A stretch of 64,000 bases of DNA from Nemertoderma westbladi (GCA_032718475.1 JAUCBJ010008828.1:18172-82171), one strand, 5' to 3'; counted from the stretch's first letter, positions 15,726 through 52,014 are shown. Numbers and translations are program-made. Notes: generated from the letters alone by a model not told the origin.

Positions 15726-15833
15726 TGTACTATTTTTTTATTTATTTTATTTTGTTTGTGGGAAGGGCGTCTCGCCCTCAATCCCACCCCCCTCAGTCCA
15801 AAACTTGGACGACTAAAATATCCTCTAACTTTG

Positions 15834-24260: not shown

Positions 24261-24270
24261 TTTTAGTTAC
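24261..24270 (-). promoter_or_regulatory. Non-tRNA primer-binding site candidate GTAACTAAAA (complementary to LTR 24433-24442)
   Basis: Abuts the 5' LTR, lacks TGG, and is a perfect inverted repeat of an LTR-internal segment. Confidence 0.7.
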
Positions 24271-28292: not shown

Positions 28293-28520
28293 AATATAGG
28301 CCTAACTGAAGCTAAAACTTCAATAAATAAACAATCCATTTGGATCCACATATTCTAGGAACAAAAACCGTCTAGAAATCACTTCTAGAAATATTTATCG
28401 GAAATTCTTTATGGTGATTGATTCCAATTTCAAAGGTTGTGGGTTCGATTTATTATCCGGCAAAATTATGTTTATTATATATCTTCAATAATTATTTCAG
28501 GGGGGGGGGGGGGGGGGGGG

Positions 28521-29890
28521 GGTAGCACCCCCAAACAGAACCTCACATTTTGTTATCTCTGAACCCTAAAATTGGATGAAAATTATTTTTTGTGATACTA
28601 AACATCGTCTGGGGTGAAGTTTATGAATAGCCAAAGGAAATATTTTTAATCTGGCCTCAAAATGGCACTGCAATTGTGCCAAAAGTGCCTTTTGCGCCAA
28701 ACACAATTTCAGAATATAAGTTCAGAAGAATCCTGCAACCAATTCTTATATTTTTGGCCCTTTGATCTAAAGAGGCTCCGGAGCGTTTGAGGCAAAATTT
28801 CTTCAGAATTTATTGTCAAAGGTATTCTGAATAAGTGTACCAAATTTCAACTCATTTATAGTTTTAGGAACAATTTTCACATTTTTATTTAGTCAACAAT
28901 AACGAAATTTTTCATCATTGCTAAAAATATATCTAATAAAACAACTTTGTAGTATTTTTAGTCATATACAGTATGTACCGTGAGAGCCTTTTTGATGAAA
29001 AGGACCTTATTCAATTGTAATAACTATTTACATCATTGTGTGTAAAGTAGCACTTTGCAGCGTTATGACCCGAGTTAATTTATGTACCGAGCGAGCGCAG
29101 CGCGGGAGGTTTACATAAATAACCAAGGGTCTTTAACGCTGAAAAGTGACCTTTGCAAGCAATTATGTATGTAATTTTGTTACATTATGTCAACTTATCA
29201 CCGTTCGGTATTTGAAGAAAAGATTTTAAGGATACTCATTTATACATTTTAATCATGTACTATATCGAATATAAGTTAAATTTATTAACAGGTGCACTGG
29301 TACACAGTATTAATTATACATTTAAATCTAATTAAAGTTTATTGGAAGTTATCTCCTGCATGGATGTGATAAATCATTAATCCATCTTGACTATAGTCGA
29401 CTGTAGCAAACTTAGTCACCGTCTTGTGTCCGTTCAGTTTTACTGAACACTGTCGTCACTTTCTTTCCTATTTTACTGTCTTCTATTGGACGTTTCGGCA
29501 TAATGGAAAACAATATACTTTAAACAATTATTTTTACATACAGTAGCTAGTCCTGTAGTCCCTTCACTGCCAACTGGATAATAAAGCAGCACTCATTAAC
29601 ATAAATGGAAATAAAAAATTCTGGAAAACGGTAATGTTGTTTCCATGTCATTGATTACTTTGCAGCGTTACGAGAAATTCACCAGAACGCTGTAAAGTTG
29701 ACATAAATGTAACAAAATATCGTGCTGCTAGAAGGCTTTTCAAAAATCAGACTAGCTCTTACGTTTTGGGTAATAACTTGAGTTTGAGAAACGATATGAG
29801 AAAACTGCTTGAGATTTGAAATCTCCATTAAATTCTGCACATAATAGGATTCAAAAATGTCGAAAATTATCGAATTAGGGGGGTGCTACC
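28521..29890. mobile_element. Putative non-autonomous DNA element bounded by GGTAGCACCCCC inverted repeats, with a nested ~545 bp TIR element
   Basis: ggtagcaccccc ... gggggtgctacc; inner attttgttacattatgtcaactt (~29173) versus aagttgacataaatgtaacaaaat (~29718). Confidence 0.45.
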
Positions 29891-29957
29891 ATGACCTACT
29901 ACACCAACTGTATTATCACAATTCTGTTGGGCACAGCTTTGCAAAGTCGGCAATGAC

Positions 29958-30028
29958 GTCCATGTGGGATCGAACTGGTGACCTTAGAGTTGGAAGTCTG
30001 ACGCTCTAGTCTCTTTCCAACGACATGT
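29958..30028 (-). other. tRNA-derived (SINE-head-like) sequence
   Basis: Minus strand GAGCGTCAGACTTCCAACTCTAAGGTCACCAGTTCGATCCC with flanking CATGT/ACATG stem. Confidence 0.35.
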
Positions 30029-30706
30029 TATAGTAGGTCATCGTGCTACCTCCCCTCCCTCTCTTAAGTATTTAGCATAAACTCTCTAATAATAACTCAA
30101 ATTTTCCGAAGCACACCCATTACGGTTCGCTGTTAACTCAGTACACATCCTTTATACTTTCCAATAAGGTTTCTCTAATTATTCAATCAATTTTGTTGAT
30201 ATTAAACATTCTCATTTAGCGATATTCTATATTACTTTTCATTATGTTATGTTAATATCCCATTATTTACTTAATTAATGTGACGGGATCCTGGTTGGCC
30301 TGGGATGCCCCCCCCCCCCCCCCTTTTTTTTTTTTACTTAGTGGTGCCTTTCCTACTTGCTGCCGCTCTAGAAGACTGACTGGCCGTAGGCCTGATAAAA
30401 CTAGAGTTATGAGATTGCCGATAATATTATAATAGTCTCAATAGTGTAGTTTACCGGTACAATATACTGTAGCACAAAGTCAGTAGTGTGGTATACGACA
30501 TGCAGTGAAAACGGTTCACCTTCTTTACAGAGTCAATTGCCAACTGGTTACATAATGCACGTGATCGTTAATATAGGGAAAAATATATTGCCTATCTATC
30601 ACATCTTTATAGTCCCATTGGCCTGTGGATTTAATGTCTTATTATATTAGATATTATACTGTATTATAATACAGTATAAATTAATTAGTATTTTCAGTCT
30701 TTTTCG

Positions 30707-31969: not shown

Positions 31970-34900
31970 CTACTACTAGGTCGAGCGAACTCGGACAGTG
32001 GAAATGAGATCCTTCCAGGCTTCCCGATTCTCCATAGTTGTCGCAATTTCGTTTCTCTCAAGTTCAGTATCCCTTTCAAGTTGATCTATATATGTTATGG
32101 CAGGTCGTCCACGACTACGCTTTCCATGAGTTGGTTGCCAGAGAAGTAGATCTGGTATGACCTCGTCTTTACTTCGCCAGCAGTGCCCACTGAATCTTAA
32201 TCTGCGTTCACGGAGGGTGGTTGATACAGGTGGTATTGTACCATAAAGCTCGGCGTTTGTCATGTGTTGTCTCCAGCTGATGTTTAGGGCTGCCCTTAGT
32301 AGTCTTGTGTAGCAACCATCAATTCGTTGTTCAAGTGATTTAGTCAGTGTCCAGGTCTCACCGCCGTATAAAAATACACTTTCCACTGTGGCTCGAAAGA
32401 ACTTAGTCTTCAGGTGCCTGGAGAGATCTGATTTCCAGATGGTATCCATTTTTGATAGAGCTACCCAAGCCTTTGCTTTCCTAACTTCTATGTCCTTTTT
32501 GCTACTCTCTATCCATGATCCAAGGTACTGGAAGTCATCGACCTTCCTTAGTTGATTATTATCAATGGTTGTCAAGTTTCCATCAACATTAAAGGTCATG
32601 AATTCGGTCTTGGTAGCATTTATATGTAATCCAACCTCCTTAGCAGCCCTCTCCACTTTATTTAGTAGAAGCTGTGCATCTGCTAGCGTATTAGAGAGCA
32701 GGGCGATGTCATCCGCAAAGTCGGTGTCTGTGACTGTAGTTGCCGGATATCTACTACTTCTGCGTTCTTGAAGTGTGAATCCCAGATCTTCACCCTTTGT
32801 GGCCGTCCTCATTGCGTAATCCAGCACAATTACAAATAGTAATGGTGCTAATGTGTCACCTTGCAGTACGCCAGCCAGGATTGAGAAAAACTCAGTTTCA
32901 CCATCTGGTGAGAGTACCTGCGCTTCTGTGTCACAATATAACAATCCAATGCCAGCAACAATTACTTCTGGTATTCCATAAGCTCTTAGGATTTCAAGCA
33001 TTTTACCTCTATGGATGGAGTCGAATGCCTTCTTGAAGTCCACAAAAGTCATGACTGCGGGGAGATTCTTTGACTTAATTCCTTCAATCAGTCTCCGTAG
33101 TGCAAGTATCTGAGCTATTGTTGATCTACTTGGTCGAAATCCGTTTTGGCTCTTACGCAGTAGTTTCTCTATGTGAGGCCTAATCCTATATAGAATCATT
33201 TTATTGTATATTTTGGCAGCTACCACAAGCAGACAGATCCCACGATAGTTTGTTGGTATGCCGAGGTCTCCTTTCTTGGGGAGAGGCTTTAGTTGACCTT
33301 TAGTCCAAATTGGTGGTGGCTTTTCCCCTTTTAACATCCGGTTGCAAACATTCAATAATGGTCTATTTAGCACTCCGGTTTTCCATACCTCCGCTGGGAT
33401 TTCATCTAATCCACTCGCTTTATTATTGGACATGCTTTTAATGCTTCTTTGGAGTTCGGCAGGTGTGAAGTCCCCTGTTTCTATAGGTAGTGTCTTGTCA
33501 TATATTTTCCTTGTAGGGCTGACCTCGATGTTTGGTGGCTGCCCAAGCAAGTTGCTGAAGTGATTTTTCCACTTCCCAACACGTTCTTCAGGACTATCGG
33601 CTTTGAGGCGCCCCTTTGCACAACTTTTCCGACCAGATACCTCATTTACAGTTTGCCAGGTAAGTCTTGATTGTTGCTGTATGTGAGCAGTTGTAATTGC
33701 TTCAGTTTTATCCTGTATGTACTTTTCCTGGCTGATGTTGTAGGCCAATTTAAGATCGTCCTTAGCTTTCTCAACCTTGTTAATGTTTTCGGTTGTTGGT
33801 TGTTCGGTTTTAACTTTGTAGGCTATCTTAAGATCTTCTCTCTTACAAGTAACCTCAGAGTTTTGCCATGGCACATACTGTTTTCGTTTAGGTTTCTGGG
33901 GGATATGCCTCTTAGCTGATTCCTTGTGGGCTGTTATTATATTCTGGTATATTGAATCGGTGGATTGGTCTTCATCCATTGACTGAAGTGCTTCAAAGCG
34001 GTTTCGAACTTCTACTGTATAAGCATCCTTTACAGCATTGTCAGTTCTGAGTTTCTCCCAGTCATAGTTGATTTGCTTGCTTGTCCTGGGTTTGCTGGCT
34101 CTCAAACTGAGTCTGATCTCTGCAGTCACAATTCTGTGGTCCGAACCAATTAGGTTGAACGAGCTGTATGCCTCGCAGTTGATCATGCTATTTCGCCACT
34201 TTTTGTTTATAAGGATGTAATCCAGTTGTGCTTTGGTTCCATTAGGGTATTGAAAGGTCCATAGCTTCCCCTTACTCTTTTCGAATGTGTTGTTTGTTGG
34301 TATCAATTCACATTCTTCCATTAGGTCTAAAAGTAAGTACCCATTTCTGTTAGAACTGGTGTTATAGGTGTAACCCTTGATGTCTTCTGGGCCAATTTGC
34401 GCATTCAGGTCACCAGCAATGACTTTAACATTGTGTTTCGGGATGTCCTTAATAAGTCCAGTCAGTTCTTCATAAAACTTGACTGCTTGTTCTGGCTCTG
34501 ATGCATTGGTTGGACTGTAGCAACATATAACTGTTGTCTTGGGATTCCCATCAAATGTTGCGATCATAACCCTGGAATTTATAGATTCGATGTTGTTTAG
34601 GGTCTTAAGTGCAAATGGGCTTAGCAGAATTCCTACTCCACCAATTGATGCATTGGCCGAGTTTCTTACTGCTGAGCTTGTTACTAACGTCCATCCATTT
34701 CCAATGTCATTGTACTTCATGGCAGTGTCTTCATGACAAATCCGATGTTCTTGGATGCAGATGATGTCGATGTTATATTCCATTGCCAGAGCGACCATGT
34801 CACCCTGTTTGCTCTGTGCTTTCAGCGTGCGTGCGTTCATTGTAGCAATCTTTAGTGTCTTTTTACATTTCAACAGGTTGGTTCTTCTTTCTTCTCTGTC

Positions 34901-35331
34901 TTCTGTTCCAGTAGCCAATTTATCGACCCCAGCCTGGTGTACCACTGAGGGACGCGGTCCTTGTTGACCCGGGCGACGACCGAGCCGGTATTTCTCCTGG
35001 AGGGTTCTCATACTCATATCTTTCAGTTGCGGGAGTAAACCGCTTGTGGTCGCAACTCCTACAAGCGTCTTCGCAGTAGGCCGCCGTTGGTTGATTACCT
35101 TCCGCCGACCTTGTCAGCATGTCTAGCCGTTGGTTGATTACCTTCCGCCTATTCATGGCCTACAGCCCTGCTGCCGACTGTAGGGGTCCATTTGTTACAC
35201 CCTGAACCAAGTGTGCCTCCTGGGTTAGGTTACCTAACACTGGTAGAGGAGCATCCAGTATAGACAGGGCGGGGCTTGTATCATCTCTAATGCAGATGCG
35301 TATCAAGCCTTTGCCTTCAATTTTGCCTTTT
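31970..35331 (-). mobile_element. Full-length RTE-clade LINE with (TAG)n tail and ~11-bp TSD
   Basis: TSD tttagagtaaa at 31959-31969 and 35332-35342; the empty site is present in copy 1 near 26690. Confidence 0.93.
31976..35017 (-). CDS. RTE endonuclease-reverse transcriptase, intact 1013 aa
   Basis: IATMNARTL, CIQEHR, GDLNA, QLDYIL, GSDH; FVDFKKAFDS, GVLQGDTLAP, FADD, YLGS; C-terminal GKRSRGRP. Confidence 0.95.
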   Translation of the reverse strand: MSMRTLQEKYRLGRRPGQQGPRPSVVHQAGVDKLATGTEDREERRTNLLKCKKTLKIATMNARTLKAQSKQGDMVALAMEYNIDIICIQEHRICHEDTAMKYNDIGNGWTLVTSSAVRNSANASIGGVGILLSPFALKTLNNIESINSRVMIATFDGNPKTTVICCYSPTNASEPEQAVKFYEELTGLIKDIPKHNVKVIAGDLNAQIGPEDIKGYTYNTSSNRNGYLLLDLMEECELIPTNNTFEKSKGKLWTFQYPNGTKAQLDYILINKKWRNSMINCEAYSSFNLIGSDHRIVTAEIRLSLRASKPRTSKQINYDWEKLRTDNAVKDAYTVEVRNRFEALQSMDEDQSTDSIYQNIITAHKESAKRHIPQKPKRKQYVPWQNSEVTCKREDLKIAYKVKTEQPTTENINKVEKAKDDLKLAYNISQEKYIQDKTEAITTAHIQQQSRLTWQTVNEVSGRKSCAKGRLKADSPEERVGKWKNHFSNLLGQPPNIEVSPTRKIYDKTLPIETGDFTPAELQRSIKSMSNNKASGLDEIPAEVWKTGVLNRPLLNVCNRMLKGEKPPPIWTKGQLKPLPKKGDLGIPTNYRGICLLVVAAKIYNKMILYRIRPHIEKLLRKSQNGFRPSRSTIAQILALRRLIEGIKSKNLPAVMTFVDFKKAFDSIHRGKMLEILRAYGIPEVIVAGIGLLYCDTEAQVLSPDGETEFFSILAGVLQGDTLAPLLFVIVLDYAMRTATKGEDLGFTLQERRSSRYPATTVTDTDFADDIALLSNTLADAQLLLNKVERAAKEVGLHINATKTEFMTFNVDGNLTTIDNNQLRKVDDFQYLGSWIESSKKDIEVRKAKAWVALSKMDTIWKSDLSRHLKTKFFRATVESVFLYGGETWTLTKSLEQRIDGCYTRLLRAALNISWRQHMTNAELYGTIPPVSTTLRERRLRFSGHCWRSKDEVIPDLLLWQPTHGKRSRGRPAITYIDQLERDTELERNEIATTMENREAWKDLISTVRVRST

Positions 35332-36174
35332 TTTAGAGTAAAAGGCCATGCAATAAAGTTATTAAAGATTATTATTTATAAATATATTAAATAACAACAA
35401 AAGAAGACTATTGTTTGTTTTATTGCATGCTCAGGCAGCTAGAATTATATTTAATTTTAAATTAAATGCGGGGGGGGGGGGGGGGGGGGGGTGTACACCA
35501 TTTTTGGACAACTCTTCGATTTATCACTGCCAGCGTTTCAAATTTTTTTGGTTTTGGCTATAATTTGGAATAAAGTTACCTAAGATGCTATTCTACATGA
35601 TAGCTCAGAAAAATTTTATTTTTGGCTATTTATATTATTTAAAGCTACAATTAACAATGAAAAAACGTGGTTGCTAAGAGGAGTTTTTTTATAAATAGTA
35701 TTAAATGTTATTAACTAAAAATTTCAAAAAGTTGTCTATACTTTTATGCAGGGTTGCTATGTAGACAGACATTTGTAGAAGTAGTAGGGTTATGAAGTTG
35801 ACAATTTCCCAAAAAAATATTTGGCGATAATAGATCGTTCATTATGCATAGTAATAGTAATTTCAATAGGTCTCCCTTAATGGAGATAGCTATAACTTGA
35901 AAAAGTAAAAGAGCTATTAAATAGCCCCCCCCCCCCCGACCCCCCTTAATTAGTTATAACTGAGTATGGAATGGTGATATAGAATTACAATGAATTGCAG
36001 AAGTTACCAGAATTACAGAAGCCACCTGGACTAACAATTATATAATAACATCATTGTAAAAAATAATATTGTTTAATTTAATTCTTCAACATTTTAACTG
36101 GTAAATTTGTATCAAATAATGAACTACTAACATCGATTTAATCCACTTCCATGGATAATGAGTGATTCATTAAA

Positions 36175-36881
36175 ATGATAATCATTATTGTTCTGCTTGT
36201 TACATTCCACACGGTAGCCACTCAGCTGAGTAACAACACAACCTCGCAGAAGACCACCACTGGTACACAACTCAGAATACCGGTCACACATGCCCCGAAG
36301 GTAGAAATTGGACACTGTCCTCAAAAAACATCGAGTTGCAAGAGATTTATGAAGCCAGGCTGCATAAGTTTATGAAAGCCAACGATTTAATTAAACCGGT
36401 TATCGACTGGTATGGCTGCCACACTTGTTCACTCATATCTGTGGTATTCAGTGCGTGGTCCGCTGAATACAAGGCTGATATTACATTCGAAGTAGAAGAT
36501 TCATGGTGCTACTATGAAGAATATAAAGGCAACTGTCTACCTATGCCTGAAACAGGTTGTCTCTATTTTGCGAACGTGGTACTTCCAGAACATAAACCTG
36601 ACCCAGACGACCCAAATGCTGTGAATCTCTTTGGGTTGATATCATATTACAACTACCTCCAGCTGGCACTCACTGTAACACACGAGACTTGCCAGTCTCA
36701 GTGCTGCAACGATGCGGCTTGCCCAGCTCCCGTATGGACTCACGAGAAAACCTCTACATCAGAAACCACAACCGAATACGTGCCGTTCACCTGGGGAAAC
36801 GGATCGGCTAATGTCAACCAAATGGTGACGTCTCACCTGGCTTGGGTCATCATTGTTGCCATAGTTCTCAGAGCGTTCTAG
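36175..36881 (+). CDS. Ly6/three-finger-like GPI protein, copy 2 (same split frames)
   Basis: Translations are identical to 27586-28292. Confidence 0.6.
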
Positions 36882-39137
36882 AATATAGGCCTACCTGAAG
36901 CTAAAACTTCAATAAATAAACAATCCATTTGGATCCTACATATTCTAGGAACAAAAACCGTCTAGAAATCACTTCTAGAAATATTTATCGGAAATTCTTT
37001 ATGGTGATTGATTCCAATTTCAAAGGTTGTGGGTTCGATTTATTATCCGGCAAAATATGTTTATTATATATCTTCAATAATTATTTCAGGGGTGGGGGGG
37101 GGGGGGGGGGGGGGTAGCACCCCCAAACAGAACCTCACATTTTGTTGTCTCTGAACCCTAAAATTGGATGAAAATTATTTTTTGTGATACTAAACATCGT
37201 CTGGGGTGAAGTTTATGAATAGCCAAAGGAAATATTTTTAATCTGGCCTCAAAATGGCACTGCAATTGTGCCAAAAGTGCCTTTTGCGCCAAACACAATT
37301 TCAGAATATAAGTTCAGAAGAATCCTGCAACCAATTCTTATATTTTTGGCCCTTTGATCTAAAGAGGCTCCGGAGCGTTTGAGGCAAAATTTGTTCAGAA
37401 TTTATTGTCAAAGGTATTTTGAATAAGTGTACCAAATTTCAACTCATTTATAGTTTTAGGAACAATTTTCACATTTTTCTTTAGTCAACAATAACGAAAT
37501 TTTTCATCATTGCTAAAAATATATCTAATAAAACAACTTTGTAGTATTTTTAGTCATATACAGTATGTACCGTGAGAGCCTTTTTGATGAAAAGGACCTT
37601 ATTCAATTGTAATAACTATTTACATCATTGTGTGTAAAGTAGCACTTTGCAGCGTTATGACCCGAGTTTATTTATGTACCGAGCGAGCGCAGCGAGGGAG
37701 GTTTACATAAATAACCAAGGGTCTTTAACGCTGAAAAGTGAGATTTGCAAGCAATTATGTATGTAATTTTGTTACATTACTGTATGTCAACTTATCAGCG
37801 TTGGGTATTTTGAAGAAAAGATTTTAAGGATACTCATTTATACATTTTAATCATGTACTATATCGAATATAAGTGAAATTTATTAACAGGTACACGGTAT
37901 TAATTATACATTTAAATCGAATTAAAGTTTATTGGAAGTTATCTCCTGCATAGTTGTGATAAATCATTAATCCATCTTGACTATAGTCGACTGTAGCATA
38001 CTTAGTCACTGTCTTGTGTCCGTTCAGTTTTACTGAACACTGTCTTCACTTTCTTTCCTATTTTAGTGTCTTCTATTGGACGTTTCGCCATAATGGAATA
38101 CAATACACGTTAAACAATTATTATTTACATTCAGTAGCTAGTCCTGTAGTCCCTTCACTGCAAACTGGATAATAAAGCAGCACTCATTAATATAAATGGA
38201 AATAAAAAATTCTGGAATACGGTAATTTAAGTTGTTTCCATGTCATTGATTACTTTGCAGCGTTCCGTCCTATAGGCCGCAACGAGAAACTCACCAGAAC
38301 GCTGTTAAGTTGACATATATGTAACAAAATATCGTGCTGCTAGAAGGCTTGTCAAAAATCAGACCAGCTCTTACGTTTTGGGTAATAACTTGAGTTTGAG
38401 AAACGATGAGAAAACTGCTACCATGACCTACTACACCAACTGTATTATCACAATTCTGTTGGGCACAGCTTTGCATTGGAAGTCTGACGAACTGGTGACC
38501 TTAGAGTTGGAAGTCTGACGCTCTAGTCTCTTTCCAACGACATGTTATAGTAGGTCATCGTGCTACCTCCCCTCCCTCTCTTAAGTATTTAGCATAAACT
38601 CTCTAACTCAAATTTTCCGAAGCACACCCATTACGGTTCGCTGTTAACTCAGTACACATCCTTTATACTTTCCAATAAGGTTTCTCTCATTATTCAATCA
38701 ATTTTGTTGATATTAAACATTCTCATTTGGCGATATTCTATATTACTTTTCATTATGTTATGTTAATATCCTATTATTTACTTAAGGTGACGGGATCCTG
38801 GTTGGCCTGGGATGTCCCCCCCCCCCTTTTTTTTTTTTTTTTTTACTTAGTGGTGCCTTTCCTACTTGCTGCCGCTGTAGAAGACTGACTGGCCGTAGGC
38901 CTGATAAAACTAGAGTTATGAGATTGCCGATATTATTATAATAGTCTCAATAGTGTAGTTTACCGGTACAATATACTGTAGCACAAAGTCAGTAGTGTGG
39001 TATACGGCATGCAGTGAAAACGGTTCCCCTTCTTTACAGAGTCAATTGCCAACTGGTTACATAATGCACGTGATCGTTAATATAGGGAAAAATATATTGC
39101 CTATCTATCATATCTATACATAGTCCCATTGGCCTGT

Positions 39138-39696
39138 CGTGGTTGACATGTACCGAACAACAAGAGTCCCACAAGAAATGAAAACAAATAAGTTGGTGCC
39201 AGTTCCCAAGCAGGGCAACCTAACACTCTATGGTTCTTTTCGGGGAATCTCATTGATCTCGATTGCTGCAAAGCTACACAATAGGATTCTAATAAATGGG
39301 GATCCCATTGAGAGACTGCTCCGTGGAAATCAGAATGGGTTCCGTAAAGGTCGTGGGACCATGGAGCCCATTTTGGCACTTAGAAGGATAATTGAAGAGT
39401 TATCAAAAAAGAAAGACAGCAAGGCCTTTGATTCAGTCTCTCGCTCACGTATGTTCAGCATACTTTCATTATATGGGATTCCTGATGAATTATTGCAGCA
39501 ATAAGATCAGTATACGATGGTTCGACAACATTTGTGTCTACTGTTGACGGTGACACAGAACCATTTGAAGTGTTATGGGGCGTCCTCCAAGGAGACACAC
39601 TTGCACCATTCTTGTTCATTATTGTGGTTGACTACGTTCTACGCATGTCCTTAGATTATTATAATGATGATGGGGTGATGATAACTCCACCTACTG
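39138..39696 (+). pseudogene. 5'-truncated RTE LINE (second family), left part, interrupted by element B
   Basis: VPVPKQG, RGISL, QNGFRKGR, KAFDSVSR, GVLQGDTLAPFLF. Confidence 0.8.
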
Positions 39697-40920
39697 TGTA
39701 AAAGCTTTTGCGTAATTAGCCGGTTATTATCCCCGTAAAGTACTCTGTGGTTGGTTTACCAGGCATAAAAAGGCCGTGTCCTTGCTGTACTGGTGTTTTG
39801 GAGGACATAAAAGCCATTTCTTCTGTATTTGTACTTTAGAGGACATAATCTGCAATTTCGTGACGTAAAAGCTCGATACTCTTGAAAACAGTGTCGCTAC
39901 CATGACGACGGCTAACGGCTGATATTGCCACGTTGCCCCATAGCCCTGCCTTCTGTATCTGCCAATAGGATTTGAGTTGGTTTTGATTTTGACCTATCAC
40001 AGATCTACTGAACTGAATTTCCTATCTGTATGCTCATTCTCTGTGGTGGGTGAGATCTTTGTAGAATAAGGGTAGCTGGTATTCTTATAGTTATTCTTAT
40101 CAGTTTTTAGTGTTGTTGGTGATTCTAAGCCAGGAAGAACGGCTTTAGCCCTACACTAGTAGGCTTAATTATAAGGACATATATCCGTTATCTGCATTTA
40201 TCACAACATAACATACCATACCTAATCAAACAACCTGTGCATACTTTATATTGTTATACTGCTATTTACTGTCAGTTCTTCATAATATGGTTGATGAATT
40301 ATTATATTTGGAATAACGATAAATAACCCCGAAACCCAATATTCTTGATATACCGAAGGTAGGAGAGAAGGGTTACATATAACAATTGTGACTTATGTTA
40401 AAGTGGTTTGAAGTGAATCTAATGTTATTTGATAGACCCTACATGATTCGGTCCGTGTTCCTTTTATATGTGACTAAAATCAGTGAAGATCGGCAGATTA
40501 GTGTGCAGTATTGTGCAGCATTGTGTATGAGTGAGACTGATAACGAAGCATTTCCTAAAGAATGCGCCATATATGTGAATTGTAACTAAGCCATATCGTT
40601 GTGAGTAGTTTAAGTCATAACTCTGTTTATATAGATAGAGCGCCACGTCCTAAAGGAACTGTTAATATTCCCCGAAGGTGAATAATATTGTCAGAGATTA
40701 TATAATACTGTCAGTCGAATAATACATTAGGCTTACATAGCAATACGATTAAGCTGTCGAAATCAATCTCCCGGGTATATCCAACGGGTGAATGATCGCG
40801 CACAGATTGGTTTCAACTAGTGTAGTGAATCAAATACTTGTTAGAGGCTAAAGCGATTTATTATCTAGAAGACATCCTAATTTGGCGGGTTAAACTGCCA
40901 AAGGTCTGAAAGCGCGAACA
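39697..40920 (+). repeat. 5' LTR of element B
   Basis: Direct repeat of 50786-52009; only 2 differences noticed. Confidence 0.95.
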
Positions 40921-40931
40921 ATAACGGATAT
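40921..40931 (+). promoter_or_regulatory. Non-tRNA primer-binding site candidate ATAACGGATAT (complementary to LTR 40181-40191)
   Basis: Abuts the 5' LTR, lacks TGG, and is an 11-nt perfect inverted repeat of atatccgttat. Confidence 0.72.
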
Positions 40932-41049
40932 TTAGTCTGTATTGCAGTGTAGGCATTAAATACAGTTTAATATTGTTCTGGTAAGAACAATAACGGATAT
41001 AGCTTCTTTATTGCAGTAAGCAATAAAGTTGAAAGTACCGGTTGACCGG

Positions 41050-41190
41050 TAAACCTGAACCGGTACTTCTGTAGGTCAGTAGGCCCAACTGCCAGAACCG
41101 GTACTGCTGTAGATCCGTAGGTCCAACTGTCAGAACCGGTACTTCTGTAGGTCCGTAGGCCCAACTGTCCTAACCGGTACTTCCAGTATA
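41050..41190 (+). repeat. ~36-bp tandem repeat in the element B leader
   Basis: aaccggtacttctgtaggtc(c/a)gtaggcccaactg.cag about 4 times. Confidence 0.8.
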
Positions 41191-41409
41191 AGTACAATAG
41201 TATTATTCGATTGTGATATATTGTATATTGTAGGCTGCTAAGGGATTAGGGATTGATCAACCCTTATTCCTTTGTATGGTTTACTTATTTCTGTCAGTTT
41301 TATTTGTTTGTAGGCCAATATTGAGCAGAAGGCGTGTAAGCCTGATCAGATTGTACAGACAATTTGTAGGCTGAGCTGTTGTCTGATTGCTGTTAAGTCC
41401 GAACGGATT

Positions 41410-41925
41410 GCAGTGTGTGTAGATCACCTGTCCGATAAAGAACGGTTAGGAAGTAGGGGCAGCCAATACTGTAAGGTAAACCCCCAACTAAAGAATAAGT
41501 CGTACTACTGGGTTAGAACGCATACTACCTAATCATTTCGGAGTCTGCATGTCCTGTAGTTTATTTGGGCTTGAGAGTAGTCTGCCATCGTTTAGTCTGT
41601 ACTTTGTTTGTGTAGTCGGTACAGGTAGCGTATAATATTTTATTTAGATAATTTGTAGGCTGGATAGTTGTCTGGCTGATTGTTGGGTTTGAGGAAATTT
41701 CGGTGTGTGTAAAGCATCTGTCCGATAAAGAACGGTTAGGAAGTAGGGGCAGCAAAAGCTGTAAGGTAAACCCCCATCTAAAGAATAAGTCGTACTACTG
41801 GGTTAGAACGCATACTACTTAACCATTTCGGAGTCTACATATACCGTAGTTTGTTTAAGCTTGATAGTAGTCTGTCAGTATTTGGTCTGCATTTTGTTTG
41901 AATGGTCTGTACGCGTAGCGTAATA
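41410..41925 (+). repeat. Two direct repeats at 300-bp spacing in the element B leader
   Basis: ctgtccgataaagaacggttaggaagtaggggcagc...gggttagaacgcatactac at ~41428 and ~41718. Confidence 0.8.
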
Positions 41926-43254
41926 TTTATTATTCAGAGTTTATGCGATTATTCGCAACATTCATATCCCCAAGATTATTCCTACAGTAATTGTGTTTGT
42001 TATACATACCGTTATAGTTAAACTAACCCCGGTACTATACGGGCTGCTCGGCGTAGGTAAAGACTGGTGATTTTGTGCACCGGTCACTCCAGCAGATACC
42101 GTGGTTCTTTTAGCTGTTCAAGTATTTTTAACTACTGATTATTTGTTATACAAGTACTTGTACCTAATTTAGGGTTTAGTGTACAGTACTTTCCGAAAGT
42201 AATTATTGTAGGCATTATATTTGTGTTGTAAAGTGGTTGATAGGCACATACGTTAGCTCTATTAACTTCTAGGTAGGAACACTCCGTGATACATAACGTA
42301 GTACCTATAGCGATACGGCTATAGGTCGTCAGGCGGTGGTATTTTCCTATCTGGACAGCGCAGTGTATTTACTACTACTTATTATTTTCAAATACCGTAG
42401 TAACCTGTCCGTTGTAATAACCAGATTTCTAACCCTTTGTTAGGCTGGTTTGTAGACTTCTTGTAAAATTACCCTGGAAATTCGTATTTTGTGTTTTTGT
42501 AAATTTTTGTGTTTATTTAGAGATTGTAATCTCACCCGAATTGTACGTAATTAGTAGTATTAAGTAACTTAGGTAAATTAGCATTATTTGTTTTAGTGTC
42601 CTATAAGTAACACTTCACTGAAAGCGCACCGCTTTGTGTAGTGATTACTCCCCAGAAATAATAACATTTATTTCAAACATTGACAAAAACCCATTTCAAC
42701 GGGTATATATATATTATAAATCAACTCAAACGATTTATAAATAGTAGGCCTGCCATACACCCATTAGGTCTCAATATCAGTTGGACTACTGCTCAAATAA
42801 CGGTAATAAAGTAAGTAAAGTAACCAAGTAACCCTAAAATTCAGAAATTCAATTATTTAAAATAATTGGTATACCGGTATTTACGATAGGCCTATTATCT
42901 TTATTTCTATAAATTTTAGGTTGAAATCATACCGGTACTCTGTAATTAATTCTAGTCTGTAATTATACTTATATATATACACTATAAGTGTAAACTGCAT
43001 ACCGGTATTCATGATAGGCCTATTATATATTTATATATATTTGTGCTAAAATTACCTACCGGTATTCTGTGATAAACTAGTCTGTAATAATACTTATATA
43101 TACTATAAGCATACCGGTATTCTAATATATTATATATATCACGCTACATTGAGTAGCAGTATCGGTAATTAATTACTAGGCTAACAGTGATACTGAATTA
43201 CTAGACTTGCTTTAACTGTAATATAGCAGTAGGCATTCAACTGTACCATCAAAC

Positions 43255-46200
43255 ATGTCTGACACAACCCAATCACTGTCGGATAGTCTCCTAGATAGTG
43301 TTAGAATGACTGTTAGACAGTGTCTTAAAAAGATCAGTGACCCAGATCCAAGTATAGAACATCCTAGATCCAAGTCGAAGTCACCTCCTGCTGTAAGAAA
43401 GGCCATCCCTACTGTAGTAATCTCAGACCCTAGGCTAGTCCAACATCGTAGGTCTATCATTGGCACTCGGGCCCAAGTCAAGCGGGATCAAGAAGCAGCG
43501 GAACCTCAACAACCCGCGAGCCAAGAACTTACTTCTCAACGGCCCGATAGCTCCAGTAGTTCGGATACTGTTGAGCGGACGCCCGAACGCGGAGCGAAGA
43601 TGGCGGATAAGGTTTATGATGAGCGGCCAACCTATGAAGAATCAACCGACGCCACTTCTTCTCAAGAAGAAAGCGAAGTGACAGCAGAGAAACCGCATAA
43701 GAGGGATGCCATTGACATTTATCTGTCAGACTATCAACGTTTTTTAGGTGATGACGAGTTGAGGAGAAGGTTAGAGGGACTTAGCCCTAATAGTGAAGGA
43801 ACCAAGCTTGTGTTGGATGCCATCGATGTGGAAATGAGGGCTGCGAATCAGGCTAAATTTGATGAACAACTCCGCATCACACGAGTCCAGGAAGAACAAG
43901 TAAAGAAAAAACGTATAGAAGACAGAAAGGCAGCGGCGGTAGCAGCAGCAGTGGCAGCTGCAGAAGCAGAAACAAAAGCGGCAGTAGCAGCAGCAAAAGC
44001 AGCGGCCGAAGCAGAAACAAAAGCGGCAGCGGCAGTGGCAGCGGCAGAGACAAAAGCGGCAGTAGCGGCAGCGGAGGCGGTGGCCGAAGCGGAAAGAAAA
44101 GCGGCGGAGGCAGTGGCAGAAGCCGAACGGAGAGCGACTGAAGAAACCACCCAATTAGAATTGGAAAACATTCAGGAGAATCAAGACTGCATAAATAAAC
44201 AGTTAACAGCTAGTAATATGCAGATGATGAATCGATCTACTCCCAAAAGACAGGGATATACATCATCTGAGGAAGGCGATACCACCGATACTGAAGGCAA
44301 GGGAAATAGATCTCGTCTAAGTAGACGTAAAAGAACATTCCACCGTCAGAAATTGCCTGATTTGCCTCCAGCTGTTAGAAGGCAACTAAATAATACCAAC
44401 TTAGGTAGTGCAGAGCCCACAGACCAAATAATTAAAATAGAAAGACTCCCTACTATAGTAGATGAGCCTGAAATAATTAGGCCTGTTCTTGAAATCACCC
44501 CTTCGGTGATAGACACACCTGTGCTCCCTGAAACTACCTCTAAATTCCCTCTGCATAGCACTAAGCTACCTGTGCCCCGTAGAACTGCCCAGGAGACAGT
44601 TCAGGTTCTGGACCCCGAGCGAAATACTCCTGATTTGTCGCCCGTTGTCCCTCGTCCGCCCGCTACAACGTTGGCGACTCCCGCTTCGGCGGTCGAATGG
44701 GTGGACGAGAGAAGGCGGGGGATGGATCTCCTGCTCGGGCAGATGCAGGAGACTGTTCAGCAATTTAAGGGCACAGTAAGGGAAAGTAGGCTAGAGTTGC
44801 AAGAAGTGCAGCAAAGTATCGCGCTAGAACGCGATAAATTAGTAAATACCCAAAAGGGTATACCACCACCCTCTGTAACAATGTGTCAACCTGTTAGGTC
44901 TGAAGTATCGCATGCGCAAGGTGTGGAGCCTACACGCATCTATACTGCTAGCGAAGTAGAAACTCCTATAGTGAACCCTATTAAGGGTAATTATAGACCT
45001 GTTGATAATGACATTCCCTATAGAACTGATCATAATCCGAGAAATTTATATACCGATAACTCGATATTAAATAACACGATGGCCCAAGAAAGTTTTACGC
45101 GTCAAATGGCTAGAACCGAAGCCCGGCAAGCGGTAAAGGTGGGAGAGATCGTCAAGTTCAATGGAGATGAGATGAAATGGTTACCTTTTAATGAATATTA
45201 CAAAGATAACATACAGAACTCTGTACTATCTAATGGAGAAAAACTTAGATACCTCATCGAGTGCTTGGAAGGATCTCCCAAGTCAATGGCGTTAAAATTT
45301 ATTGGACATCCAGATGGATTAAGACAAGTTTGGGATACACTAAACATCAGGTATGGTAATAGGACTAACATAGCTAGGTATTTATATGCGAAATTAATGG
45401 CGCCCCGAAAGTTTCTTAGCAGCGGGATTATAGAGTTTTCCGATGAGATTCAGGAGATCTGTAGACAACTAGATTGGTTAGGTAAGTCTCATGAATACCA
45501 GAATTCTATGGTTGTAGGAGCCTTAGCATCTACTTTGCCCAAGGGTGGAGTAGGTACACGCTGGGACAAGAAGGTGTTATATATGATGGAACAACAACAA
45601 CGAGACCCTACCATGGCTGATCTCATGTCATTCTTGGATAGCGAGGTGAAATTACAGCTCATAAAGCAGTCCAGAGAGAAGACAGCGGAAAGTAAGGTAA
45701 GTGAGAAACCCGTTTCTAGGAGAAGGGTAACACCAGTATGTTATACCGACGACGGTGAAAGCCAAACTTCTCAAGGAGAGGACAGCGGGAAAGACACTGA
45801 CAGATCTTATTATGTCAATAAAATGCCTAAAGGTCAGGTAAGTAAATCCGAGTCTCGACCCAATGACAGAAGGGAACCGGTACAAAAAACCCTTCCTACG
45901 TCTCCTAAAAGAATTCAGGTGAGAAAGCCCGAGGAAAGAACAAGTGTGCACCACATAGCACAGGTTAAAGTAAGTAACATCAAGCCGAAATGTGTGCTGT
46001 GCGACGGGCCCCACCGTTTAAATGCGTGTGATAAATTCTTGAGGAAATCACTAAAGGATAGACGTGAAGTCATGTGGGATAAGCGGTTGTGTTATAATTG
46101 CCTCAGACGAGGACACCAACGGCGAACCTGTTACTCCGACGCAAGGTGTGCAAAGTGCGGCGCAAAACATCATATCTTGTTGCACACGGAATTCGAACGA

Positions 46201-47730
46201 AACAGCCCGAGTCAGGTAAGTGAGTCCGAACTACATGTCCAATTCAGTGATGTGAACGACACTGATCAATCTGAGATGGAAGGATTCTATACGGACGAGT
46301 TCTCCGACGAAAACGAATCCTGTTACTTAATAAACACCACCGCAGTGTATCGAGCACTCATGTATGAGAAAGACACAGACAGCGACCTCACCCTAACTAC
46401 TTCAGATCAACAACCATCTTGGAAAGCGCCAACTTCCAATATAGGAATCCGAGAATTTCCTGTAGTCCAGTTACGGGTCCACGGACCTCAGAAGAGCTAT
46501 ATAGTGAACGCCCTCCTGGACTCCGGTAGCACAGGAACATTCATCGATAAAGAACTAGCCGAAGTCATCTTTGCTGGACAACCCAAGTTCCGAACCAAGC
46601 TAAACATGTCAGGGATCATGCAGGTTTGGAATTCTACTGTAGCTGCCGACTATTATATAGGTGAGTTGTCCACTCCACAGGATAAACTAGGAGAATACAG
46701 TATAAGGTCAGTAAAAATGGTGGCAATAAAGAACTTCGCTACCACCCAAGTGGAACCTTATAATTGGGACGAAGATGATCATGCCCAACAACTTAACATC
46801 CCTAGATTCGACACCGATTATCCTGGAGTACAAATATTAATCGGTCAAAACGCGCATGAGGCGCTGGAGACATTAGAGAAACGACCTACTCAACCGCAAC
46901 CACTTCAGACCTATGCGGTAAGAACTAGAGTAGGTTGGTACCTTACTGGACCTTCCCGTAGAACGCTCAGAGAAAGACTGCTTCAAGATCGCGTCTGCCA
47001 GGTGAGTGAATGGGAAGATGATACTAGTGAGGGAGACGACCCAACTGAGGGAACACCATACTCCTCAGATAATGACGATATTAGCTCCAATGTAGATCAA
47101 TGGAGATATTGCCCCAAGAAGTTTAATCCAACTGACATCGCTTCCAGAGGAGCAACTCCTCAAGAACTGACAGATACTACAGACCGGTTAGGTGAACCCG
47201 ACTTCCTGAGTAAGGAGGATGAATGGCCTCCCCATCTTACTCCGACTGAGATTAGACCAGCCAAGGGAGCGGAGAAAGTTAAACCTAAAACCCGGACGGG
47301 TGGAGCGGAGTTATTTGAACCCGGGATAGATCTGTCGGTATTACATATTGCCAGGGACGACGCCGTGGATCTGGACCTCCCCACCGCGAGTGGATCCTTC
47401 ATGAAGATCAGAGAGAGCGATTGGAGCTCTGGAACATCAGACGTCTCGCAGGGACTCTCACCTCTCCTGCAGAGAGCGACGGACCACTATAGCTCCTGGA
47501 ATCGGCTTTGTAAGGCCGTCGTGTACTTAGAGCGATGTTTCTATCGTCACTATTCCAGGACGAAGAGGAAACCTGGAATTGTATTCGGGATGCAGCGACT
47601 CAATCGCCCAGCTGGTCGTTTGTGTTTACCGGAAGGGAATGGAGGACTCTCCGGAAACTGTGGAAGGCAAGATTCTCTTCCCACGACCACCTCCCTAATC
47701 CTTCAAACATCTAGGGACTCCATAACGTAA
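43255..47730 (+). CDS. gag: BEL/Pao Gag-protease polyprotein lacking RT, most of RNase H and integrase
   Basis: KFNGD..W..F, KLRYLIECLEG, CVLCDGPHRLNAC, CYNCLRRGHQRRTC, CAKCGAKHHILLH, ALLDSGS, then jumps to QWRYCP...NPTDIASRG; no YVDD. Confidence 0.9.
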   Translation: MSDTTQSLSDSLLDSVRMTVRQCLKKISDPDPSIEHPRSKSKSPPAVRKAIPTVVISDPRLVQHRRSIIGTRAQVKRDQEAAEPQQPASQELTSQRPDSSSSSDTVERTPERGAKMADKVYDERPTYEESTDATSSQEESEVTAEKPHKRDAIDIYLSDYQRFLGDDELRRRLEGLSPNSEGTKLVLDAIDVEMRAANQAKFDEQLRITRVQEEQVKKKRIEDRKAAAVAAAVAAAEAETKAAVAAAKAAAEAETKAAAAVAAAETKAAVAAAEAVAEAERKAAEAVAEAERRATEETTQLELENIQENQDCINKQLTASNMQMMNRSTPKRQGYTSSEEGDTTDTEGKGNRSRLSRRKRTFHRQKLPDLPPAVRRQLNNTNLGSAEPTDQIIKIERLPTIVDEPEIIRPVLEITPSVIDTPVLPETTSKFPLHSTKLPVPRRTAQETVQVLDPERNTPDLSPVVPRPPATTLATPASAVEWVDERRRGMDLLLGQMQETVQQFKGTVRESRLELQEVQQSIALERDKLVNTQKGIPPPSVTMCQPVRSEVSHAQGVEPTRIYTASEVETPIVNPIKGNYRPVDNDIPYRTDHNPRNLYTDNSILNNTMAQESFTRQMARTEARQAVKVGEIVKFNGDEMKWLPFNEYYKDNIQNSVLSNGEKLRYLIECLEGSPKSMALKFIGHPDGLRQVWDTLNIRYGNRTNIARYLYAKLMAPRKFLSSGIIEFSDEIQEICRQLDWLGKSHEYQNSMVVGALASTLPKGGVGTRWDKKVLYMMEQQQRDPTMADLMSFLDSEVKLQLIKQSREKTAESKVSEKPVSRRRVTPVCYTDDGESQTSQGEDSGKDTDRSYYVNKMPKGQVSKSESRPNDRREPVQKTLPTSPKRIQVRKPEERTSVHHIAQVKVSNIKPKCVLCDGPHRLNACDKFLRKSLKDRREVMWDKRLCYNCLRRGHQRRTCYSDARCAKCGAKHHILLHTEFERNSPSQVSESELHVQFSDVNDTDQSEMEGFYTDEFSDENESCYLINTTAVYRALMYEKDTDSDLTLTTSDQQPSWKAPTSNIGIREFPVVQLRVHGPQKSYIVNALLDSGSTGTFIDKELAEVIFAGQPKFRTKLNMSGIMQVWNSTVAADYYIGELSTPQDKLGEYSIRSVKMVAIKNFATTQVEPYNWDEDDHAQQLNIPRFDTDYPGVQILIGQNAHEALETLEKRPTQPQPLQTYAVRTRVGWYLTGPSRRTLRERLLQDRVCQVSEWEDDTSEGDDPTEGTPYSSDNDDISSNVDQWRYCPKKFNPTDIASRGATPQELTDTTDRLGEPDFLSKEDEWPPHLTPTEIRPAKGAEKVKPKTRTGGAELFEPGIDLSVLHIARDDAVDLDLPTASGSFMKIRESDWSSGTSDVSQGLSPLLQRATDHYSSWNRLCKAVVYLERCFYRHYSRTKRKPGIVFGMQRLNRPAGRLCLPEGNGGLSGNCGRQDSLPTTTSLILQTSRDSIT

Positions 47731-50700
47731 CAACATATGGAGTGGGTGTGTGACTCTATTATTTTATATTATTTTATTATTTTTATATTTCTGTATGTAT
47801 TACTATGTAATTTTATTATAATCGTTTTCTTTAATTTTATTCAGTAGAATGTTATTTTAGCGATTATTTAGTAGATTAGTGCAATATATATTCGCGTTTA
47901 TTATTTAATTACGTATATTATATTTAGTGCGACGGCGAAGAAATAATTCTTTTTCTCTTTCCTTACTGTCCGTATTATATTATAAATACGTAACTACAGT
48001 AAGATGAAATGTCCGTACTTATTAAAGTACAATAAAGCCACTACTATATTAAAGTATTATTGGTAGGCAGAGTATTAGGAATGCAAAGTTCAGATCCTCG
48101 TGTCTCAGCTAAACCAAGCTCTGGGTAGACCTTGGAAACGACTTGCCTCTTCACACTGACATTGCTTCGTGCGATATTGCTCTCATACCGTATATTAAAT
48201 AATACATATAGTAGCGTGATGTCCCTCTAACAGTAGCGTAAAACGCACATAAATCTGTTAAACCTTTTGACCATCTGTAATTCTAGTCGATTAAGATATC
48301 GCGGCACCCACCGATATACTTGAAAGACAAATTTTAGAATCAGTGGTTAACAAGTTCTGGAATAAATTGGTGCCCATCTCAAATATTAATTATTTAATAT
48401 TTGCAAATCTAATAAATCAAAATCTGTAAAATTCAGATCCTTCAACAATTCTAGTCAATTAAGATATCGTAGCATTTACCGATATTCTTAAAAAGACAAT
48501 TGTCATAGAATTAAGGATCTTGTGTCCCCAGACATGTTCTAGAATCAAAATATGTCAATTTAATTATCAAATAATAAAATTTCAGGGAATAAATTTAAAT
48601 TCATGCCTTTTAATGAATTTAATAAATTGCCATTTTTACGCAATTTATAACATTCCCAAAATTCCATTAATTAATAGATCAAGGGAGCGGAGATTTATCG
48701 TATTATGAGTATGAGTGTGCGAAGTCTCCCAAACATAGTCAATAGCCGATAAAATTCATAAAGTCATGTATAAAACAGGACATTGACTATTAAAGAATTA
48801 CTATTAAATAACATCCCAGATCTGTATGCATTGGAATTACCCTAATTCTACCGCTAGCTTTACATAATGTCACCATAGCAACAACCACGCTAGAATTAGA
48901 ATTGAGTTAAGAGAACAATAGAAAGCTTGTCCCATTGAATAGCATAGGGAATAAATAGTGCACTGATAGTATCCAAGGATACATAATAATACAGTGACAT
49001 TCTGGAAGGCATTGACTAACGGACAAGTGACCCGAGTGTGTGTAATTTGTGACAAGTTGTGTGTGTGGTATTTGTGAGTTTATAGGCGAATGTTACTACT
49101 AAGGTGTGTTTACAGTAGCGAGTCGCAATTGTGAAAGTAACCCTAACTCTCCAGTAAGAACCTGAGGTGTATCTAAGCCTTTGGGACGGACAGTCGAGTG
49201 ACTTGTGCCGGTTGTCGTTGTCGTTGTGCGGCTACGTCGTTGGCGAAAGTACAGCGGCGACGACACATCGGCGCTGAGGATCTCGTACTGTCCGGGGGTT
49301 GATTGGGGTAGGCAGCGACGCCCGCTCGCCTAAATATAAACTCATTATAATATGGATAAACTCATATATAGCAGATATGACGGAGTTGATAGAAGATGGT
49401 CTTAGTATCGGGGAGCGATATACTCTACTTTTACAAGCGTTTGTTGATAGCTTAATACGCGGCGACGTTAGTCCAACTGCTGAGGAGGACGATGGTCGTT
49501 ATATCGAACCGCCAATGTCCCAAGAGCAGCTCGCGCGAGTTGGACTATAGAAAATTCGCTGCTCGATATACGCAGAGTAATGGTACGTATATGGTCTTCT
49601 TAACTACTGGTCATCCTATCGATTTACATAATACGGACTATGTCGACTATATATCCTGCCCAGCGGAGTCGGAACCATAAACTGAAATTCGAATGCGAAA
49701 ATTCTATTCGAAATCGACTCGAAAGAAAAGACACTAAAGAAACAAATAAACGCGGTAACTCCAACGTATATTTGGAATTCTTGATAGAAGCATTGTAACA
49801 ACAAATAAATATCACCCGCGTTTCCCCTACCAGACGTGCGTCTTTGGTATTATTATGATAAATGCCCTAGACCCAACTAATAAACGGAAAGACATAAACA
49901 TCCACGGAAACGTTGTGTTAAACACAGTTGTGCTCGTTATATTTACTGGAGTTTCGAGCGAAACTTGTTTGACGTATCACCTATGCTCACTCGGCTCGAA
50001 CGATCCTGGAGTAAACCTACGATCAGAGTCCCGGAATACTCGGTCAAACCTCCTCATTCCTTAGTTGGACCTCAGACCTGCGATCCTGGTGGTGTCGCGG
50101 ATCCTCGCGGACTGTATTCACTGTTCAAAGATCTAGTGCTACCCTAACAATTAATCGGTAACACTCCGACAGTGATTTCTAGCTAGCCGCCCATCTTACC
50201 TAGCCGGATTGTGACGCGGACACCTAATATCACTATCCAACCGTATGGTCGTTACCGTTTAACGCGATACAACCCTTCATCAAGGTGAAGGAGAGCGTTG
50301 TACGAAACGAGTTAAACGCTATTCTATAAAGATCAAAAAAGAAACCTGCGTTTGTTCAGATCAACGTAAGTTATAACAGTAAGTCCAATCGATAAACGAA
50401 TTGGCCTTATCTCAGTTCGATTGGGAAATCTCGAATCTCTAAGAAGATATCAAGCTTAGAAAACCCTATTCTCTGCGAGAGTTTTGGATGAACGTATCCA
50501 GCTACGAGCGGAGGAAAATCAGCTCGAGGAGAAGCATATCGAAACGGCGGATACCCCGACCATAATCCTACACCTTCTGATGCAATCATATTGCACCCTT
50601 CACCCAGGATTTATAGCCCTCCTAGTAAAGTGGCTCGCCCCAAAGAGAAAAGGACTCTTGCTAGCCTCAAAAAACTGCGTAAACGCCGTCTGCGTAAGAA

Positions 50701-50777
50701 AGACTAACTGTTTAGAGTATCTTTATATTTTAGAAACTGTGATTTGTTATATTTTATAGACTTAAATCCCATTTTCT

Positions 50778-50785
50778 GGGAGCGG
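50778..50785 (+). promoter_or_regulatory. Polypurine tract of element B
   Basis: GGGAGCGG directly before TGTAAAAG. Confidence 0.75.
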
Positions 50786-52009
50786 TGTAAAAGCTTTTAC
50801 GTAATTAGCCGGTTATTATCCCCGTAAAGTACTCTGTGGTTGGTTTACCAGGCATAAAAAGGCCGTATCCTTGCTGTACTGGTGTTTTGGAGGACATAAA
50901 AGCCATTTCTTCTGTATTTGTACTTTAGAGGACATAATCTGCAATTTCGTGACGTAAAAGCTCGATACTCTTGAAAACAGTGTCGCTACCATGACGACGG
51001 CTAACGGCTGATATTGCCACGTTGCCCCATAGCCCTGCCTTCTGTATCTGCCAATAGGATTTGAGTTGGTTTTGATTTTGACCTATCACAGATCTACTGA
51101 ACTGAATTTCCTATCTGTATGCTCATTCTCTGTGGTGGGTGAGATCTTTGTAGAATAAGGGTAGCTGGTATTCTTATAGTTATTCTTATCAGTTTTTAGT
51201 GTTGTTGGTGATTCTAAGCCAGGAAGAACGGCTTTAGCCCTACACTAGTAGGCTTAATTATAAGGACATATATCCGTTATCTGCATTTATCACAACATAA
51301 CATACCATACCTAATCAAACAACCTGTGCATACTTTATATTGTTATACTGCTATTTACTGTCAGTTCTTCATAATATGGTTGATGAATTATTATATTTGG
51401 AATAACGATAAATAACCCCGAAACCCAATATTCTTGATATACCGAAGGTAGGAGAGAAGGGTTACATATAACAATTGTGACTTATGTTAAAGTGGTTTGA
51501 AGTGAATCTAATGTTATTTGATAGACCCTACATGATTCGGTCCGTGTTCCTTTTATATGTGACTAAAATCAGTGAAGATCGGCAGATTAGTGTGCAGTAT
51601 TGTGCAGCATTGTGTATGAGTGAGACTGATAACGAAGCATTTCCTAAAGAATGCGCCATATATGTGAATTGTAACTAAGCCATATCGTTGTGAGTAGTTT
51701 AAGTCATAACTCTGTTTATATAGATAGAGCGCCACGTCCTAAAGGAACTGTTAATATTCCCCGAAGGTGAATAATATTGTCAGAGATTATATAATACTGT
51801 CAGTCGAATAATACATTAGGCTTACATAGCAATACGATTAAGCTGTCGAAATCAATCTCCCGGGTATATCCAACGGGTGAATGATCGCGCACAGATTGGT
51901 TTCAACTAGTGTAGTGAATCAAATACTTGTTAGAGGCTAAAGCGATTTATTATCTAGAAGACATCCTAATTTGGCGGGTTAAACTGCCAAAGGTCTGAAA
52001 GCGCGAACA
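50786..52009 (+). repeat. 3' LTR of element B
   Basis: Direct repeat of 39697-40920, followed by TSD TACTG. Confidence 0.95.
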
Positions 52010-52014
52010 TACTG

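Follow-up and report, generated by a model that had tools for sequence, protein, structure and literature searches.

Complementarity between the LTR and the putative primer-binding site in two unrelated BEL/Pao elements, and a possible self-priming mechanism

Each group of retroelements is defined in part by the way in which it primes reverse transcription. Self-priming is established for Tf1 and Tf2, for which published accounts describe an RNA segment that pairs with the site where the primer binds (PBS), undergoes cutting by RNase H and primes the minus strand from its 3'-OH. According to these accounts, the Tf1 primer is the 5'-terminal part of the RNA, with three duplexes forming a 'pretzel' around the primer-PBS duplex, and the activity of Tf2 is switched by the choice of transcription start site.

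Self-priming has also been proposed for the Tf1/sushi group, for Tcn1 (Ty3/gypsy) and for TAR (Houba, Osr-1; Ty1/copia). The predictions for Tcn1 and TAR imply that the trait arose or spread in more than one superfamily and, as for the elements described here, they were drawn from sequence alone, from an LTR-complementary PBS together with the lack of a tRNA match. Tcn1 and TAR are plant or fungal elements of the other two superfamilies, whereas the elements reported here belong to BEL/Pao.

BEL/Pao elements are confined to metazoans, and the ICTV profile of the Belpaoviridae names tRNA-Arg or tRNA-Gly of the host as the primer, with a PBS of 18 nt. In the full-text literature outside subscription journals we found no description of self-priming in BEL/Pao, Semotivirus or Belpaoviridae. 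Here we describe two BEL/Pao elements in which the bases that directly follow the 5' LTR are complementary to a segment of the LTR itself.

Two LTR elements in the window

Self-comparison of the window, by which we mean the whole 64-kb stretch of Nemertoderma westbladi DNA analysed here, revealed two LTR elements, A on the minus strand and B on the plus strand; these are the sole two in the window, and a third B-family LTR stands separately. Element B (39697-52009) is 12.3 kb long. Its 5' LTR (39697-40920; 1224 nt, TGT..ACA) was paired by self-BLAST with a 3' LTR of 1224 nt (50786-52009) that differs from it by 2 mismatches, a 5-bp target-site duplication, TACTG, flanks the element (39692-39696 and 52010-52014), and a polypurine tract, GGGAGCGG (50778-50785), adjoins the 3' LTR. 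Since the LTR pair, the TGT..ACA termini and the TACTG duplication set the boundaries, the 5' LTR ends at 40920, and it starts at 39697 and not at 40145, the first coordinate given in the sequence-only reading. Neither AATAAA nor ATTAAA, which would help to delimit the R region, occurs in the B LTR.

Element B is inserted within the reverse transcriptase (RT) ORF of a LINE, and the empty LINE site is abundant in public DNA runs, where it is recognised by a loose end at 39696. Several copies of LINEs, with RVT_1 and endonuclease domains, were seen at 39600-39696, 52015-52150, 2-1690, 6127-8823 and 31976-35113, and about 4 kb of sequence (26690-30626) recurs at 35332-39137.

The B ORF (43222-47730, plus strand; first in-frame ATG at 43255) encodes 1502 aa with the gag domain DUF1759, zinc knuckles, a part resembling a protease and what is left of a post-RNase H region. 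RT/RNase H and integrase are missing from this ORF, which is colinear with the A polyprotein except that it skips RT-RNase H (23% identity in gag, 24% in protease). Lacking RT-RNase H and integrase, B is therefore a non-autonomous derivative, and by its DUF1759 gag and the protease-like part colinear with A it is classified as BEL/Pao.

Element A, on the minus strand, has a 5' LTR of 530 nt (24271-24800), paired in the self-comparison with a 3' LTR at 10856-11384, and is flanked by the target duplication CATAT (10851-10855 and 24801-24805). Its gag-pol ORF (15834-22661, minus strand; 2275 aa) contains DUF1759, Peptidase_A17, Integrase_H2C2, rve and DUF5641; RVT_1 went undetected by Pfam in the polyprotein, and all the other expected BEL/Pao families were present. 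The best homologues of A pol in the protein collection were BEL/Pao polyproteins with at most 35% identity, some of them annotated with RVT_1, and the polyprotein had zero matches in viral contigs. By its domain content, element A is assigned as a full BEL/Pao element. With canonical BEL/Pao elements (Belpaoviridae, Semotivirus) the window elements share the gag-pol domain set, the TGT..ACA termini, the 5-bp duplication and the polypurine tract by the 3' LTR. Membership of A and B in the Tf1/sushi group was considered and ruled out: those elements are Ty3/gypsy chromoviruses, whereas A and B are marked as BEL/Pao by Peptidase_A17, DUF1759 and DUF5641 (A) and by DUF1759 (B), no Ty3/gypsy chromovirus pol was found in them, and the best homologues of A pol are BEL/Pao.

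The 4.4 kb between the A pol stop and the 3' LTR (11385-15833, minus strand) hold two Pfam-negative ORFs, one encoding 622 aa (12096-13964) and the other 222 aa (13891-14559), possibly an env-like gene, as well as a tract (15113-15702) of tandem repeats roughly 36-73 nt in size.

Complementarity at the LTR junction and its conservation

The first bases after the 5' LTR of element B, ATAACGGATAT (40921-40931, plus strand), form a putative PBS that lacks TGG and is, over its 11 nt, the exact reverse complement of ATATCCGTTAT (40181-40191, plus strand), a putative self-primer at LTR position 485-495 that is present again in the 3' LTR (51270-51280). This complement had been reported in the sequence-only reading, and it held when the coordinates were checked and the LTR end was fixed at 40920. 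Motif and PBS both lie on the ORF strand, so they can pair within the genomic RNA. Dinucleotide shuffling of the LTR (20000 trials) produced an anchored complement of at least 11 nt in 0.1% of cases, or 0.3% when offsets 0-5 were allowed; the earlier estimate of 3e-4 was somewhat optimistic.

Element A has the same arrangement. Directly after its 5' LTR lies a putative PBS without TGG, GTAACTAAAA (24261-24270, minus strand), complementary on the sense strand over 10 nt to TTTTAGTTAC (24433-24442, minus strand; LTR position 359-368), and an anchored complement of this length was reached in 0.145% of 20000 shuffles. In both elements the complementarity thus exceeds that of shuffled LTRs, and both complements start at offset 0; the joint chance is about 1.5e-6 if the two are taken as independent. 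The A and B LTRs are unrelated by blastn, which at word size 7 yielded merely 9-13-nt matches (E = 2.9), yet both pairings are anchored at the LTR junction, bearing out the earlier claim that dissimilar LTRs share one geometry. Motif and PBS are 729 nt apart in B and 162 nt apart in A.

Control comparisons gave shorter matches: the B PBS was complementary to the A LTR over 5 nt, to the antisense B LTR over 6 nt and to 28 internal 1224-nt windows of B over at most 7 nt. Among 1000 other starts downstream of the B LTR, besides a second copy of the PBS at 40990, complements of at least 10 nt were obtained at 41200-41201 and 41260, which is the level expected by chance. The complementarity between LTR and PBS is, then, non-random in two unrelated BEL/Pao elements. 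We also noted that the 10-mer GTAACTAAAA recurs at 10801-10810, in flanking DNA 46 nt outside the A 3' LTR, where about 0.1 chance hits would be expected in the window.

As in Tf1, Tf2, Tj1 and the Tf1/sushi group, the putative PBS of A and B lies directly 3' of the 5' LTR, is complementary to the element's own sense-strand LTR and comes without a tRNA-type PBS. The duplex is likewise short, 10-12 bp in A and B; the Tf1 self-primer measures 11 nt.

No TGG-type tRNA site was present in the first bases after the ACA of A or B, no tRNA gene was found in the 64-kb window, and none of the Rfam families, tRNA included, matched the LTRs or leaders of the two elements. For comparison, a 19-protein BEL/Pao alignment was used to collect 80 metagenome loci, all distant (22-37% identity); six of them had two LTR copies, and leaving out one whose 3' copy is truncated where the contig stops (L001) gave five controls. 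A TGG-type PBS stood 2-6 nt after ACA in four of these five metagenomic BEL/Pao elements, in which the end of the 5' LTR is defined, three with the form TGGTCC..GA(G/A)CCGGAT and one with TGGTAGCAGAGCGAGG, and the anchored LTR complement was at most 7 nt in all five. A and B differ from these relatives in that they are without a site of the type TGGTCC..CGAGCCGGAT 2-6 nt past the LTR; in its place they carry the LTR-complementary site as their putative PBS.

An unanchored survey of the metagenome loci gave 12 ACA-anchored complements of at least 10 nt in 60 upstream regions, versus 7 with reversed and 6 with complement-only sequences, an uninformative difference. The same 19-protein alignment retrieved zero relatives from viral contigs. 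A match to the 18-nt LTR-end pattern in contig L081 was considered as a possible relative and set aside as chance, the contig being GC-rich and apparently non-eukaryotic.

The B family is very highly repeated in the public DNA runs X1 and X3, in which B-family contigs are about 60-150 nt long and motif and PBS never fall on one contig. Within the PBS (40921-40931) the sole variant reaching at least 2% was A>T at 40928, at 6-7% (depth 7345.7/102307.2 in X1 and 7240.8/119032 in X3), whereas A>C at 40934 reached 52% in X1 and 64% in X3, and G>T at 40935 reached 54% and 77%, respectively. With the PBS near-invariant and the bases that follow it variable, the conserved stretch therefore coincides with the paired stretch. 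In the majority form the next base after the PBS is an A, which pairs with T40180 to give 12 bp, as is also seen in the window copy at 40990-41001. The LTR end, PBS and leader of the B family are also found on a contig from a second organism (run X4).

The third B-family LTR (62438-63670, minus strand) is a 3' LTR, about 8% diverged, whose element body runs off the window. Its version of the motif, ATATCCTTTAA (63218-63228), has two changes in 11 nt, the last base included; these are uninformative, because neutral decay gives them in 22-43% of cases at 8-13% divergence. A block of 48 nt (40145-40192, plus strand), containing a hairpin, a TATAA (40170-40174) and the PBS-complementary motif, could be aligned to this third LTR, whereas its flanks, 200 nt on the near side and 60-100 nt beyond, could not, and joints or loose ends in the DNA runs fall at 40144 and 40192-40194, at the edges of the block. 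About 6 kb of tandem repeats (56100-62470; 30-nt period with a 15-nt sub-period, units 80-90% alike) abut the third LTR.

Proposed self-priming and its alternatives

The explanation that we favour, at roughly even weight, is that in A and B a piece of the element's own RNA, and not a tRNA of the host, serves as primer for the minus DNA strand. The sequence-only reading, which argued for function and compared the 11 nt with the Tf1 self-primer, is partly supported: the pairing is anchored and non-random, lies on the sense strand, takes the place of a tRNA-type PBS and matches the conserved stretch. A second helix noted in that reading did not survive, as described in the last section.

By analogy with Tf1 and Tf2, the LTR segment would lie in the 5' part of the genomic RNA and fold back onto the PBS. 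Cleavage by the element's RNase H immediately behind the motif (after 40191 in B and after LTR position 368 in A) would yield a new 3'-OH that would prime the copying of U5 and R. Plus-strand synthesis would then copy the primer, so that each cycle would renew the PBS from the LTR motif, and such renewal would explain a perfect match with sharp ends. For B, reverse transcription would have to rely on the enzymes of an autonomous relative, since its own RT has been lost. A primer built by splicing was also considered and rejected, as no upstream LTR word beside a splice-like site lengthens the complementarity in A or B.

If this reading is true, self-priming has arisen in all three LTR-retrotransposon superfamilies, and BEL/Pao RNase H can cut an RNA-RNA duplex. 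Annotation pipelines that require a tRNA-type PBS would miss or mislabel such elements, the host would be unable to restrain them via tRNA or tRNA fragments, and the choice of start site could switch them on or off, as in Tf2. Two unrelated primer/PBS pairs within one genome would also provide a clean test system.

RTAAC opens the PBS of A, that of B and all the PBS-like variants in contigs (CGAACA-GTAACAGTT), which differ in the rest, a regularity recognised post hoc; the putative primers therefore end in GTTAY. A broader claim, which we hold tentatively and rate a little short of even, is that some BEL/Pao lineages of this animal have abandoned tRNA priming, self-prime from a 10-12-nt LTR segment ending in GTTAY and re-copy the PBS in each cycle, independently of Tf1/sushi.

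Folding gave results that bear on self-priming and on its strongest competitor alike. In B the helix was part of the minimum-energy fold in four of five constructs, with a pair probability of about 0.9 or more for most of its pairs in those four. In A the primer-PBS helix came within 1.8 kcal/mol of the minimum-energy fold, and there the LTR motif has a stronger alternative partner, a PBS-like arm in U5 (LTR position 471-492) with which it starts a stem of 21 bp. When the A duplex was enforced, adjacent stems and a U5 hairpin formed, not between PBS-adjacent sequences as in Tf1, so that a Tf1-like three-duplex 'pretzel' was not clearly found; in B the span is very long, at 780 nt.

The competitor is a long-range leader helix with a regulatory or structural role, which would mask or present the PBS and switch the RNA between translation or packaging and reverse transcription, with some host RNA as the primer. 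We consider this unlikely, although the choice of the A motif between two partners 1.8 kcal/mol apart, the PBS (10 bp) or the U5 arm, is switch-like, and the promoter motifs of A, a TATAA (LTR position 267) and a TCAGTT (295) for which the predicted start is some 62 nt upstream of it, put that motif inside the transcript and away from its end. Under self-priming, an A motif internal to the predicted transcript would mean a long primer, unlike the 5'-terminal primer of Tf1. The model for a leader helix comes from retroviruses, with their U5-leader and U5-PBS helices; in known retroviruses, however, it is the flanks of the PBS that are paired and not the whole PBS. A leader helix would moreover need a second primer for two different sites that are not tRNA-like (ATAACGGATAT and GTAACTAAAA), and it would leave unexplained why exactly the first post-LTR bases, and exactly the conserved stretch, are paired.

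A second alternative, which we regard as improbable, turns on where transcription begins. If the start lies downstream of the motif, the genomic RNA would carry the motif only in its 3'-terminal U3, from where it would pair with the 5' PBS region and join the RNA ends for initiation or first strand transfer. In neither element do the TATA/Inr motifs put a start at the LTR motif itself. In B the TATAA at 40170-40174 lies 11 nt upstream of the motif, a poor fit to self-priming, and its spacing would predict a start near 40196-40203, about 5-12 nt past the motif; a second TATA-like pair (TATAT at about 40246 with TCAGTT at 40272; 40246-40277) would put the start still further downstream. With a B start downstream of 40191 the motif would be found only at the RNA 3' end and a 5'-3' pairing role would fit better, and the 48-nt block could then owe its conservation to being a core promoter rather than a primer. 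In A, by contrast, the best TATA-Inr pair is upstream of the motif and places it in the 5' RNA, and this reading would still require a separate primer.

Pairing of this kind has known counterparts. In Ty1 (CYC5-CYC3) and Ty3 (bipartite PBS) a short stretch of the leader, in or close to the PBS, pairs with a remote part of the same RNA, uniting the RNA ends and aiding initiation or first strand transfer; the complement in A and B likewise links a leader site to a remote one. A difference is that Ty1 and Ty3 still use tRNA-iMet as the primer and that their partner sequence is confined to the 3' region.

Less probable again is priming of both elements by a host RNA, such as an internal tRNA segment, a half-tRNA or another small RNA, with the LTR copies being incidental or primer-derived. 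Half-tRNA and internal-tRNA priming exist in Ty1/copia lineages, but two host RNAs would each have to match their own LTR by coincidence, at the joint chance of about 1.5e-6 given above, and neither LTR contains a tRNA-like sequence.

That the two matches are functionless coincidences is very improbable: each alone has a chance of about 1 in 1000, many features of the window were examined in the first reading, and unanchored positions yield further complements of 10-11 nt as often as expected, but both LTR elements of the window are positive at offset 0, the boundary of PBS conservation is the boundary of pairing, and the tRNA site is missing.

The B leader and the proposed second helix

In the sequence-only reading the B duplex was extended by a second helix between AGTGTAGG (40947-40954) and CCTACACT (40150-40157). 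This 8-nt complement is present in element B, but when the 53 nt after the PBS were shuffled and compared with the 61 nt before the motif, 854 of 20000 shuffles (4.3%) reached at least 8 nt, which is chance level. One arm, CCTACACT, falls in a competing local hairpin, CCTAC-ACTA-GTAGG (40150-40163, plus strand), that was flagged by a terminator scan, and the other, AGTGTAGG, lies in a non-conserved 69-nt insertion (40932-41000, plus strand) between 16-nt direct repeats, GAACAATAACGGATAT (40916-40931 and 40985-41000).

The majority of B-family copies in public DNA contigs of the same organism are without this insertion, as seen from joints that skip the 69 nt and from a loose end at 40931. In 18 X1 contigs, 40931 is followed by AGCTTCTTTATTGCAG..., the window sequence past the second repeat copy, and in this majority leader the second-helix complement is down to 5 nt. 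We therefore rejected the second helix as evidence, its PBS-side arm being missing from most family copies and its length being matched by the shuffles. The insertion ends with the second PBS copy (40990-41000), from which the 12-nt pairing extends to 41001.

In contigs from other copies, repeated CGAACAGTAACAGTT units surround the same 43-nt segment, so that the leader carries tandem units made of an LTR end and a PBS-like sequence; these units are possibly scars of aberrant priming or strand transfer. The B leader as a whole is 2.3 kb long and includes short tandem repeats, whose CCGGTAC-rich unit measures about 39 nt, along with a tandem duplication of 290 nt (41040-41180 and 41357-41931).
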